This document shows positions 1,464 through 16,600 of a DNA stretch of 64,000 bases, in pieces. Origin of the DNA: Lytechinus pictus (Eukaryota); the NCBI RefSeq assembly GCF_037042905.1, contig NC_087251.1, positions 15,502,001-15,566,000 on the forward strand, in the 5' to 3' direction. The position numbers were made by a program, and so were the translations under genes. The notes beneath the pieces are model-generated. The model did no database searches. It was not told the origin of the DNA and saw only the letters and a program-made list of their open reading frames with translations. The first letter of the stretch is position 1, and each line of letters begins with the position of its first letter.

Positions 1464-1716
1464 ATTTGCATATCAATAACCGGTACCCGATACCTAACTT
1501 GAGCACAGAAAAGATTCAATCTCGGTCATTATTTTAACTATTACAAAACAATTCGAAAACATACTTGATAATCAATTCACAAATTTTCTTCTAAAAAGTA
1601 AAATATATCGATATATTGCATCGATTGTCGAATCCGCAGTCGGAAAATAAATTTAATGCCGAAAAACTTTTTACTAACTACAATATTTCTTTGATTCCGA
1701 CTTGGCGGAGATATAA
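1464..1716 (+). promoter_or_regulatory. Type-3 Pol III external promoter of the 7SK gene (octamer + TATA; PSE expected about 1675-1695 but not identified)
   Basis: Perfect octamer ATTTGCAT at 1464-1471 (about -277) and TATAA at 1712-1716 (-29 to -25 from G1741). This is the layout known for U6/7SK promoters. Confidence 0.6.
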
Positions 1717-1740
1717 GTGTAAGCCGCGCGGTTTATAATC

Positions 1741-2085
1741 GGTCGTGCGGGGTGTCTCAGTCGCCACTGTCCCTGTGATTGACCGCTCGAGTGTAGGCAA
1801 TAAAGGTGCTCCTCGTGGTCTCGGTCCTGTGGCCCTAACTGTAGGTGTAACCAAACCTGTCGCTACCCACTCCTTTCCTGTAGAGGTTCTCCCGATGCTT
1901 CAGCGCTCGGTTGCAGAGCCTTGTCCCCAGCTCTCCTAGAGGGTTCCAAATCGGGTGTATTCTCCGTGGATAGGCGTCCTCATCTCTGTTGTCCAGTACT
2001 TCTGGGGGGAGGTCTGTCTTTCGTGAAGTCAACGGTTATGGCGCGACCATTAACAGAGCACCACATGTGGTGGAGCTCATTTTTT
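1741..2085 (+). ncRNA. RN7SK: 7SK snRNA gene (divergent invertebrate homologue), ~345 nt
   Basis: 5' GGTCGTGC (1741-1748) pairs with GCGCGACC (2041-2048), like the 7SK closing helix (human GGAUGUG/CACAUCC). ATTGACCGC at 1778-1786 sits at the offset of human AUUGAUCGC and pairs with GTGGTC (1815-1820). CTCCCGATGCTTCAGCGCTCGGT (1889-1911) matches recalled human CTCCCGAAGCTGCGCGCTCGGT at 20/23 columns. The terminal hairpin GAGC-A-CCAC-ATGTG-GTGG-A-GCTC (2056-2078) has the human SL4 loop AUGUG and is followed by T6. TATA at about -29. Confidence 0.88.
2080..2085 (+). terminator. Pol III oligo-T terminator of 7SK
   Basis: TTTTTT one base after the terminal hairpin. Confidence 0.8.
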
Positions 2086-13600: not shown

Positions 13601-16600
13601 GATGAGCAAGAATAATTCAAAATTTCTATGTCAAAATCAAGTTGCACAGGAAATTTTTAAAGGAAATTGTTGAGGATTATTTATTCTTTATATCTTTCTA
13701 TGAATATAAGCTTCACTTTTTTAATGCACTGAATATTGACTTTCAAGCAATTACAAATAAGATTCTAAATGTACCTGTTGTAAGATCAATATTATGCCTG
13801 TCTTCCTCTAGTCTTTTGATCTTGTCTTCAAGGTCAGCTTTCATGAGATCACGGAGTAAACTTTTCTCACTCTGTGGATTTAAACACATACCATGAAAGG
13901 GATGAATTAAATTGTCAAAAGTATAAACACTAGCTTCTGATGGAATGAGAGGTATATTGTATTTCTTCATTGTGTATAATCAGCAATCCCTTAACTTATT
14001 AGTGGAAATGGCAACTTACAAGGCATACTATAACTTAGAGCAACCAGAGGATAGATAGCGTGCGTGGCCCGATACAGCAGCATGTGAGACACAAAGACCA
14101 TGTCTGCCAGCAGATAATGAATTGTAATTTCTTTTCCTGTCCACACAAGGTAAAACAAAGTTTAAAAAATAAAAATATGCTCACATACAGAACATGTATG
14201 TTCAGCTCTGCATCTCTACAAAACTTGTCCTGATTTCTGAAATATTACCAGTACATGATTAGTTCGTGAATGGTACATTAACATCACAGGCCTACCTATA
14301 ATATTTCTATATTTCTTTCTCTCCAATGAAAATATATTTTTTTATAATATGCGTTCGGGGAATGATGAGGGAATCATTCTTTTATTAAAAAAGAAATTAC
14401 CTCATGGTTTTCCCTTGAGGCTTTTTCTTCACTCTGTAGTTTATTTCTGATGTTCTCCATGCGTAGCTCTCTCAGGACACTAGCAATACGGAGCTTTCTA
14501 CTCTTCATCTGGTCCAGCTCATGGAGGGGGGTTAGATACTCGTGAGCAGCTTCCAACTTGACATCGTTCAACTTAAACTCAATTTGTTCCAGTCGTTCTG
14601 AGTACAATCTACATTGAAGCATTTATAAGGAATGAGTTATACACAATTAACCATGCATGAATGTCAATCATAGGGGCATTCAGCTTAAACTAAGATACAA
14701 AATGTCAAAGGACAAAAACAATGGAATGAAATGGCCCCAGAGATCTTATACAAAACTGATATTTCTAAAAAACACTTTCTAGATTTCATTATTTCCATTC
14801 AAGTATACAGAGTAAACTTACTTGCCATTTCTTTATTAGACTTTTTTGTCATAGATTTTGGTAAATAAAGCCTACAAGACATTTACTGTTTATAGAGTAC
14901 ATGAAAGGGCATAAAGGGATAACAAATTGGCATAAGAAAAATCTCTTTTTATTACTTCTCCAAGATCATATATATGGTAACAAAATTGCAATAAAATTAT
15001 TGCACTTTATGATTATCAGAGATGACATCAATGATTTTACTTCAAAGCTTGATAAGCTCCCTAATTGGTGCAACTTTTATTTTTAAGATAATCAATAATT
15101 TTCTAATACTTACTGATCTCTGAGACTTGTGAACTGACTTTCTAGATCATTCATGTCTTCCATACATTCAGTTCTTCTTCTGTCACAGTCAAATTCATCA
15201 TACTCTGTTCCATGATAAAAAACATTTAAAAAAAAATTCTCTGTTGTTTCTTAAGGTTCAATTTGTTAAGTACAACTTTTCAATTGTCTGAGAAGTACAT
15301 GTATATGAATATCATCAGAATTTTTGGCATTAGCAAACAGAAAATACATCTTTTTTATGAATGAAGTTCAACAAAAGCATACAGACTGAAATGGCCATGT
15401 ACATTTACATATCAAAAGCATTTAGACTTTAGTATTTGATGGCATCAAGTGATTTAAGAATAGAGCTATTCAGTACATGGATAATTTTCAGTATTGTTTT
15501 CCATCTTACAATTTTTTTTGTTTTCAACATCATAGTATATCATGATATTGGATCGTTTATCAAATACAAAGCAATAGCATACAGAAAATAAAATCTTGTT
15601 TTCCTTGTATTTGCCAGTTAGAATTTAACACTACGCTGCATGCTGACTGGCTCAAGTACTCACTTAACCTGGTTTTTGTTTCAAGGTATGATTTGTTCAT
15701 AACAACCATTAATCTAACTTTCTGTATGAATTATTCATCTCAACTAATACCCTTTACAAGGAGAGGGGACATAAAAAGAGAAAAAGAAGCAAAGCAGATC
15801 TAAAATAAGTGAAAAGCAAAGAATTCATGAATTATGGAAATAGAAAATACTAAATTATAGAAAAAATATTTTACCCTCTTTCAAAACATGTAGGAACATC
15901 TTAACATAACCATTTCAACAAAATGTAATTGGCAGTGGGTGTTCTTACATACTTAGAAACATGTATATTTCTGTATGAAAATGTGATTGATAATTCAAGT
16001 GATGTACGTGTTACATGTCAATTCAATAAAATAATTAAATAAATAAAATATTCAAAAATACAAAATTTTGATCACTTAACCACAGAAAACGTGAAAAGTT
16101 TTGTTTGGAGGGGTTGTATGGCATAGGTTTAAATGAAAAGTAACCAAAATTAAAAGTTTTAAAACATACACAAAAATCATAATTCATAAAGTCCTGTAAT
16201 CACAAACCCCCCTCCCCCTAGACAACTGTGACATTCATAAGTGACATAATTTATAACTTCTTCTTCAGTACATGTATGTATCCTTCATGATTTAATATCA
16301 AAACACATGCAGTCATGCAGGGAGGCATCGTAGCTCAGTCGGTTAGAGCGCATGTTTCGGATAAGATCGTAGATCTCAACGTGAGGGGTTCGAGTCCCGC
16401 TCATGCCAAAACACGTCTAACAAAAAATGTGATGCTACATGTATAGCGTCTTAATAGCGTTGTGTGTTAGTGTGCCTCACCACTGTATTCAGTGCAGGTG
16501 TGAATGCAGTTGGAAAACACTCCGTCCATCGGAAAGGACGCAAATGTTGGTTTCGTGTACAGGAGAGTCACAACCTATGCACGTTAAAACCAATACACTA

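Follow-up and report, generated by a model that had tools for sequence, protein, structure and literature searches.

A probable divergent 7SK RNA gene in the genome of the sea urchin Lytechinus pictus

The window analysed here comprises 64,000 nt of the Lytechinus pictus genome (contig NC_087251.1 of assembly GCF_037042905.1, positions 15,502,001 to 15,566,000, forward strand). Near its beginning, at positions 1741-2085 (+), lies a 345-nt segment that an original prediction, made from the letters alone, had read as a divergent 7SK small nuclear RNA gene. We conclude that the segment is probably a divergent echinoid (Lytechinus) 7SK orthologue, with a probability of roughly 0.8. The 7SK identity is supported by architecture, motifs, transcript evidence, conservation, promoter comparison and partner genes; the Rfam model is negative. 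7SK scaffolds the principal brake on P-TEFb, and hence on the release of paused RNA polymerase II (Pol II), and its occurrence outside vertebrates is patchy because the RNA evolves fast.

The segment gives rise to a real RNA with a defined 5' end at position 1741. Contigs of four public runs (X1, X8, X13 and X16) were placed on positions 1400-2400, and three of them, from three studies, are cDNA contigs that cover nt 1-309 (X1; 331-nt contig over 1741-2049), 1-301 (X13; 310-nt contig over 1741-2041) and 8-302 (X8; 295-nt contig over 1748-2042) of the RNA. Before 1741 the X1 contig carries 22 extra letters, directly adjoining, and the X13 contig 9; these correspond to the 3' terminus of the cDNA 5' primer that a preprint lists as 'primer_5p'. 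Because the primer letters are joined there, the X1 and X13 contigs represent cDNA whose RNA template ended at 1741, with an uncertainty of 1-2 nt, the primer end and the RNA start both being G. We take the primer to be a template-switching oligo. The three contigs stop at 2041, 2042 and 2049 and give no cover over 2050-2085, so the 3' hairpin and the U tail are known from the DNA sequence alone; priming upstream of a stable hairpin could be the cause. Among the 24 runs listed for the RNA sequence, 20 hold 86-89% of its words, across 9 studies, and none of the 24 is labelled firmly as RNA (the labels are 'RNA?', a guess, or '?').

Run X16 carries a different organism label (organism B), and its 946-nt contig, which lies on 1539-2097, is taken as DNA because it covers the flanks. 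The contig is unlike the window before 1539, and the octamer of the candidate promoter falls outside the comparison. The remainder shows purifying selection on the RNA relative to the promoter spacers. Five of 41 differences are unlisted, within ~31 nt of the piece ends, and the assessable range leaves out 2067-2097; of the 36 listed, 33 fall in 1571-1739 (with 2 indels there as well) and 3 in the RNA. This amounts to 33/170 assessable upstream positions against 3/326 RNA positions (Fisher p = 1.2e-13), the RNA being 21 times less diverged than the upstream flank. The difference at 1746 (T>C) converts a U.G pair of the closing helix to C-G, while those at 2050 and 2051 are in an unpaired linker. 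Within the flank, the proximal sequence element (PSE)-like box at 1673-1683 is unchanged (its neighbours 1668, 1672, 1684, 1686-1688 and 1690 differ), as is 1691-1717 including the TATA box. A second TATA-like sequence, TTTATAAT at 1732-1739, has 6 of its 8 positions changed and for that reason is probably not functional.

For comparison, metagenome contigs were scanned for the central block of the candidate with its variable places left open, giving at least 118 loci. Rfam was run on 20 of these (the 12 of lowest GC, L045 and 7 better BLAST matches) and called 7SK in five: L090 (368.9 bits, vertebrate-like), L123 (169.4 bits, partial) and L049, L064 and L092 (36.1 bits each). Two further groups, L107/L113/L098 and L100/L074, with L119 as a cut-off relative, have genes of ~450-460 nt with the same ends and the central block, and are not called by Rfam. 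Five loci, L090, L123, L092, L107 and L100, served as references. The compact 296-nt 7SK lies at L092:332-629 and recurs in L049 and L064, the three metagenome contigs being 11-60 kb long. The longer 7SK-like genes are at L107:368-828 and L100:361-808 (also in L074, L113 and L098); a TATA box is seen upstream in L107, and three versions of these genes share 70-89% identity among themselves and would lend themselves to a covariation study.

The ends of the candidate RNA are arranged as in these genes. The 8-bp closing helix between the 5' and 3' parts, corresponding to M1/stem-loop 0 (SL0) of 7SK, is present as predicted, with eight pairs of which one is G.U. Throughout the full-length set (n=5, candidate included) the first 7-8 nt pair with an 8-mer near the 3' end, and the distance from the helix to the 3' end is 37 nt in the candidate and 37-39 nt in the four full-length 7SK or 7SK-like references. 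These four have GGAUGUG/CACAUCC, against which the candidate changes pair 3 from A-U to U-A, pair 4 from U-A to C-G and pair 6 from U-A to U.G; pairs 3 and 4 are thus compensated, both sides having changed. In dinucleotide shuffles, an 8/8 pairing of nt 1-8 with some 8-mer of the last 60 nt arises in 276/5000 cases, and one placed 36-40 nt from the 3' end, as is typical of 7SK, in 477/100000.

The terminal CCAC-ATGTG-GTGG hairpin was likewise recovered, as a stem-loop 4 (SL4)-like structure with an upper stem CCAC/GUGG, a lower stem GAGC/GCUC and an A-A mismatch between them, followed by A and U6. Its fold (-11.8 kcal/mol, z = -2.05) is matched in stability by 6 of 200 shuffles. The loop of human SL4 is 5'-AUGUG-3', with G312 described as 100% conserved and G312 and U313 as needed for LARP7 binding (PMC5175362); the candidate loop is identical to the human one. 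The loops of the five references read ACGGG, AUGGG, ACGGG, AAGGG and ACGUG, and the candidate keeps the A, G and G that they share (A-N-G-N-G). The upper stem follows C-N-N-C/G-N-N-G in candidate and references, with the two inner pairs covarying. The original prediction had noted that the closing helix and the terminal stem differ in sequence from human yet keep their pairing. A five-base A.G.G loop closed by a 4-bp stem is seen near the 3' end in 769/100000 shuffles, and together with the closing helix at its offset in 2/100000, the shuffle criteria having been chosen after the reference sequences were seen.

The closest sequence likeness lies in a central hairpin, which was 89.5% identical over 38 nt to the 7SK of L092, L064 and L049 (E = 2.9e-5, BLAST against the metagenome loci). 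The hairpin CCGA-N-GC/GC-UCGG forms in 6/6 sequences folded, and its outer stems covary. A profile of the central block from the five references matched the window once, at 1888-1916 (18.4 bits, E = 1.2e-4; next E = 0.8), in a test that, like the others on this block, is partly circular in that the references were fished by a pattern taken from the candidate. The block also corresponds to upper-case consensus in the independent Rfam 7SK model (consensus positions about 119-140), and occurs once in the 812-Mb genome, at the candidate (0 matches in a reversed control). Aligned by hand with the 332-nt 7SK template printed in PMC11351768, it gives 25 matches, 4 mismatches and 1 gap (score 19). Both internal blocks that the original prediction had placed in the order of human 7SK are present, at 1889-1911 and 1936-1950; the second, CTAGAGGGTTCCAAA, is collinear by eye with CUAGAAC..UCCAAA of the Rfam 7SK consensus and with the 7SK in PMC11351768.

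A distal helix of stem-loop 1 (SL1) with GAUC/GAUC and flanking U bulges, the HEXIM site, has been called the 7SK hallmark (PMC10083321). In human, helix H3 comprises G42-C45/G64-C67 (GAUC/GAUC), with bulged U40, U41 and U63, and helix H2 ends in A39-U68 (PMC2995076). At nt 38-46 the candidate reads AUUGACCGC and at nt 76-81 UGGUCU; the 7SK counterparts are AUUGAUCGC (39-47) and UGAUCU (63-68). The location of this look-alike site matches the GAUC at nt 42/64 of the vertebrate-like L090 and 36/58 of L092. When the isolated domain 1763-1833 is folded, H2 is predicted between nt 36-38 and 81-83, with a UU bulge at nt 39-40, and H3 between GACC (1781-1784) and GGUC (1817-1820); the order is G37-C82, A38-U81, the U39-U40 bulge, G41-C80, A42-U79, C43-G78 and C44-G77. 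On this model H3 is kept through a double change from U-A to C-G and the UU bulge is retained. Above H3 the candidate has 14 nt more than L090 and L092. A double GAUC is not universal among 7SK-like genes, since the L107- and L100-type genes carry one GAUC.

The promoter was compared with those of the genome's own U6, RNase MRP, RNase P, U6atac and U2 genes, located with Rfam models. All the landmarks named at the outset are in place: the octamer ATTTGCAT at about -277, TATAAG (1712-1717) at -29, the G start (base 1741) and the T6 end (2080-2085). Octamers stand at -235 to -274 before MRP, RNase P a and b and U6atac_a (4/10 RNA polymerase III (Pol III) reference loci). A YYAACY core at -59 to -67 is common to U6, U6atac, MRP, two U2 genes and the candidate (ACTAACTAC, 1673-1681). 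The TATA box has the same position in U6_a, U6atac_a and RNase P_a. T6 is the sole run of four or more T within the 345 nt, against 11 such runs per kb in the 2-kb flanks, and the genome's U6, U6atac_b and RNase P genes likewise run into a T run. With the octamer at -277, the PSE-like box at -67, TATA at -29 and T6, the layout is as in U6atac, RNase P, MRP and U6 of this genome and typical of type-3 Pol III genes, so that Pol III would be the expected polymerase.

Genes for partner proteins are also found. The genome encodes one HEXIM (98.6 bits; a 292-aa open reading frame (ORF) with the PYNT motif), which is 100% identical over its full length to the record 'HEXIM1-like [Lytechinus pictus]' and so supports the original prediction's guess of a sea urchin host, as well as a Bin3/MePCE-type gene and two loci with an xRRM-type RRM_3 domain, which are expected to be La and LARP7. 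The arginine-rich motif of the urchin HEXIM ORF is KRRRPRRKNRKWK, without the Ser of the Pro-Ser hinge. In human, specific binding is reported to require this hinge, which is part of the HEXIM basic motif and in urchin is not conserved (PMC2995076). It is conserved in 0/14 aligned HEXIMs (echinoderm, hemichordate, amphioxus, frog, tick and limpet), and because it is absent from all 14, its absence in urchin lends weak support to co-evolution. The idea that echinoid 7SK and HEXIM changed their recognition code together, with GACC/GGUC, a compensated U-A to C-G variant of the helix that human HEXIM1 has to open, on one side and a motif without the hinge Ser on the other, is speculative, and we regard it as possible rather than probable. 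If true, the urchin pair would be a natural specificity swap, showing which features of the site count: bulges and helix geometry, or A-U pairs.

Several results weigh against a 7SK identity. The cmsearch with the Rfam 7SK models that the original prediction had proposed as a check was negative on the whole window, on sub-ranges and on the genome: RF00100 and RF01052 give no match at gathering score in the window and none at E <= 10 on 1650-2150, 1741-2085, 2030-2090 or 1870-1960 (501, 345, 91 and 61 nt), and RF00100 gives none at E <= 10 over the whole genome (8995 first-look candidates, 19 scored). A covariance model of the 3' module (R1; 52 positions, 5 references) scores the candidate at 6.1-6.4 bits, locally, at ranks 18 and 21 of 25, its best match in the window being elsewhere (13.8 bits), and a full-length profile hidden Markov model of the five references returns no match in the window. 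Local alignment beyond the central block is no better than with shuffles, of which, per 2000, 136 equal it for the 5' part and 1307 for the 3' part of L092, 1567 and 966 for L090 and 1917 for L123; an ungapped comparison of the flanks over the metagenome loci was uninformative owing to a 1-nt indel. For the central block itself, the hand-alignment score of 19 is reached by 30/3000 shuffles, and the circularity noted above has to be added. Folding energy is ordinary for the whole molecule (z = -0.86), with z-scores that are not significant for the 5', central and stem-loop 3 (SL3)-like parts, SL4 alone being unusual; the candidate SL4 is without the two-pyrimidine bulge; and evidence of covariation from within echinoderms is nearly nil, with one related organism compared. 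Finally, no GATC occurs anywhere in the 345-nt RNA, so that the literal GAUC/GAUC hallmark is absent, a point overlooked by the original prediction, with GACC/GGUC in its place; in human a GGCC/GGCC double mutant abolishes specific HEXIM1 binding (PMC2995076).

These points could be accommodated by a lineage-specific type-3 Pol III non-coding RNA unrelated to 7SK, alike by chance or convergence and with its function elsewhere: no covariance-model or profile test assigns the candidate to 7SK, beyond one ~35-nt block the similarity lacks significance, a literal GAUC is missing, and the feature criteria were picked after inspection of the data. We nevertheless consider such an RNA unlikely, as it leaves unexplained why several 7SK-specific features are collinear at the right distances, why the central block agrees with the independent consensus of Rfam and has a single occurrence in 812 Mb, and why HEXIM, xRRM and Bin3 genes are present while no further 7SK is detectable. 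L107 and L100, which are clearly 7SK-like, are likewise missed by Rfam, whose silence is therefore weak evidence against a divergent member; as Rfam 15 does not score the candidate, its seed evidently holds no close relative of it. Membership in 7SK thus rests on the module-by-module comparison, the Rfam search being negative throughout. Alternatively, the RNA could be a paralogue or variant derived from 7SK whose HEXIM binding is altered, with an undetected canonical 7SK at another locus. The altered HEXIM-site helix (GACC/GGUC) would suit this, a fly 7SK variant with GAUC changed to GAUG provides a precedent (PMC8406779), and Rfam is too insensitive to exclude a second divergent gene. That the sequence is single copy, with its central block once in the genome and no pointer to a second locus (neither RF00100 at E <= 10 nor the block reveals another 7SK), and that the RNA is almost invariant between two organisms make the variant very unlikely in our view.

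Transcription of the same RNA from a Pol II snRNA-type gene, with the 3' end processed upstream of T6, is a further alternative. The PSE-like core occurs in U2 genes too, and a TATA box at -28 to -31 is common not only to U6, U6atac and RNase P but also to the tandem U2 genes, whose TATA-like box lies at -30, so that TATA alone does not assign the polymerase. What makes Pol II quite unlikely is the rest of the gene: the 3'-box-like CAAAGAAAGAA that follows U2 at 4/4 loci was not found after the candidate, the octamer at about -240 to -277 occurs in the type-3 set only (0/4 U2 loci have one upstream), and the RNA ends in T6, as do U6, U6atac_b and RNase P in their T runs, with no internal T run of four or more. 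The chance that there is no gene here at all, but a GC-rich island, stray exon or repeat, is practically negligible. The GC-rich island of ~345 nt that had been described is real (GC 0.52-0.55 across 1701-2100, 0.26-0.39 in the flanks), and open frames of 58-66 aa from a start codon, or 105 aa from stop to stop, overlap the RNA; the three tested have no Pfam match, which speaks against a coding reading. A high-copy repeat, the contrary outcome envisaged by the original prediction, was looked for by DNA search, and the 345-nt sequence is present once in the 812-Mb assembly, with no related repeats within 6 kb of the locus; the repeat reading is out. An adaptor at a fixed cDNA 5' end in two studies and the 21-fold lower divergence of the RNA also speak for a gene.

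Other RNA identities were rejected. In the whole-window scan no Rfam family reaches threshold on 1741-2085, which excludes RNase MRP, RNase P, U6 and U6atac, and the genome has its own copies of these elsewhere (MRP at C7:11.8 Mb, two RNase P genes on C21, U6 on C18 and elsewhere, U6atac on C1 and C6). Weak Rfam matches to SBWMV pseudoknots, snoU83D, SNORD39, HOXB13-AS1 and snR35 (E = 0.95-9.6), are chance matches.

Table 1. Features of the candidate 7SK RNA gene and its promoter, in window coordinates.
Feature	Position	Strand	Basis or remark
Octamer ATTTGCAT, distal element	1464..1471	+	-277; sequence
PSE-like element ACTAACTACAA	1673..1683	+	centred near -65
TATA box GATATAAG	1710..1717	+	about -30; TATAAG 1712-1717 at -29
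7SK-like RNA, 345 nt (presumed extent)	1741..2085	+	cDNA adaptor at 1741; 3' end placed from T6 only
Closing helix (M1/SL0), 5' strand GGTCGTGC	1741..1748	+	pairs 8/8 with 2041-2048
HEXIM-site look-alike	1776..1823	+	minimum-energy fold of isolated domain 1763-1833
Central conserved hairpin; core block CTCCCGATGCTTCAGCGCTCGGT at 1889-1911	1883..1919	+	match to L092/L064/L049
CTAGAGGGTTCCAAA block	1936..1950	+	collinearity by eye
Closing helix (M1/SL0), 3' strand GCGCGACC	2041..2048	+	nt 301-308; ends 37 nt from 3' end
Linker ATTAACA	2049..2055	+	single-stranded, unpaired in fold
3' hairpin, SL4-like	2056..2078	+	GAGC-A-CCAC[AUGUG]GUGG-A-GCUC; loop 2065-2069
T6, presumed Pol III terminator and source of U tail	2080..2085	+	sole T run of four or more in the RNA

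Some observations on the small RNA genes used for comparison stand apart from the candidate. A tandem U2 array with a period of ~1037 bp at C8:33237223-33284622 accounts for 45 of the 48 listed U2 matches; the array copies carry the TATA-like box at -30, whereas the 3 dispersed copies do not. The two RNase P RNA genes (C21:11674222-11674518, 152.7 bits; C21:3987820-3988120, 149.4 bits) have nearly identical promoters. A U6-like family, L003-L006 (twice at C2:21.56 Mb, C6:16.10 Mb and C16:14.32 Mb), has a changed 5' stem-loop, the start GTCGACAAGAAATTGTTGAC and scores of 82-96 bits. A TATA box and a T run accompany some copies, and others end in A runs and look like retrocopies. Elsewhere in the window, 16324-16408 (+) gives a tRNA-like match (29.1 bits, Rfam threshold 29) with a 20-nt insertion at the anticodon region. 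The match could reflect a tRNA gene with an intron, a repeat derived from a tRNA, or chance; ARAGORN reports no tRNA in the whole window. An inverted repeat at 3516-3561/3785-3830, with 46-nt arms that are 83% complementary and 223 nt apart, has the shape of a miniature inverted-repeat transposable element.

If the candidate is a 7SK gene, SNAPc-type factors would act on the PSE-like box at about -65 together with the TATA box (-29) and the distal octamer (-277), and Pol III would start at G1741 and stop in T6. The resulting RNA of ~345 nt would close on itself as its first 8 nt pair with nt 301-308 in the 8-bp helix; La, and then LARP7, may hold the U tail and the AUGUG hairpin, and Bin3/MePCE may cap the 5' end beside the closing helix. 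HEXIM would bind the GACC/GGUC helix with its UU bulge in place of GAUC/GAUC, and through HEXIM the ribonucleoprotein would capture and sequester P-TEFb. In this scheme the choice of polymerase, the position of the 3' end, every protein contact and the function are deduced from the features described above.

An echinoderm 7SK would fill a deuterostome gap and seed a better covariance model, the current Rfam model missing the candidate and at least two other 7SK-like gene types in metagenome contigs. Work on transcriptional pausing in sea urchin embryos could include the RNA component, and the altered HEXIM-site helix is a natural test of what HEXIM recognises, which may interest specialists. 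The advance is incremental; molecules of this type and their mode of action are well known. A literature search, with supplements and key 7SK surveys outside its scope, found no paper reporting an echinoderm 7SK RNA; what it returned dealt with HEXIM proteins, was confined to reference lists or used the terms in an unrelated sense. To our knowledge the key surveys (Gruber 2008, Marz 2009, Yazbeck 2018) include no echinoderm 7SK sequence. Novelty is not established.

Among known systems, vertebrate 7SK (RF00100, human RN7SK) is alike in length (332 nt, candidate 345 nt), in its G start and U-run end, in a TATA box at about -30 and in the distance of SL0/M1 from the 3' end. Its AUUGAYCGC at nt 39-47 has a counterpart at nt 38-46 of the candidate, its central CUCCCGA.GCU..GCGCUCGGU hairpin is also present, and the AUGUG loop of SL4 is the same. 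It differs in H3 (GAUC/GAUC, candidate GACC/GGUC), and its Rfam model does not score the candidate. The apical part of SL1 is 14 nt longer in the candidate, the closing helix has two compensated pairs, the counterpart of human nt 150-205 is largely missing (by eye), and the CU bulge of human SL4 is replaced by an A-A mismatch.

The 296-nt 7SK of L092, L064 and L049 (36.1 bits, cut-off 35) is the best sequence match of the candidate (38 nt, 89.5%). Its first 11 nt agree with those of the candidate at 9/11 by eye (GGAUGUGCGGG against GGUCGUGCGGG), and it is likewise compact, lacking the second internal hairpin, and also has its TATA box at about -30. Unlike the candidate, it has GAUC/GAUC, GGAUGUG/CACAUCC, a 2-nt bulge in SL4 and an ACGGG loop. 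The genes of L107/L113/L098 and L100/L074 resemble the candidate in scoring below the Rfam gathering score and in having a closing helix, the central block, an SL4-type hairpin and a T run, and they carry one GAUC only; they differ from it in being ~110 nt longer, in GGAUGUG/CACAUCC and in their 5' domain.

The Drosophila gene snRNA:7SK:94F, in which the HEXIM-contact stem has GAUG for GAUC, was found only with sensitive models (PMC8406779), and like the candidate it departs from GAUC in this stem. As described in PMC8406779, snRNA:7SK:94F is a second copy beside a canonical 7SK, for which the authors hold Pol III transcription highly unlikely; the urchin gene, unlike it, is single copy and has a Pol III-type end.

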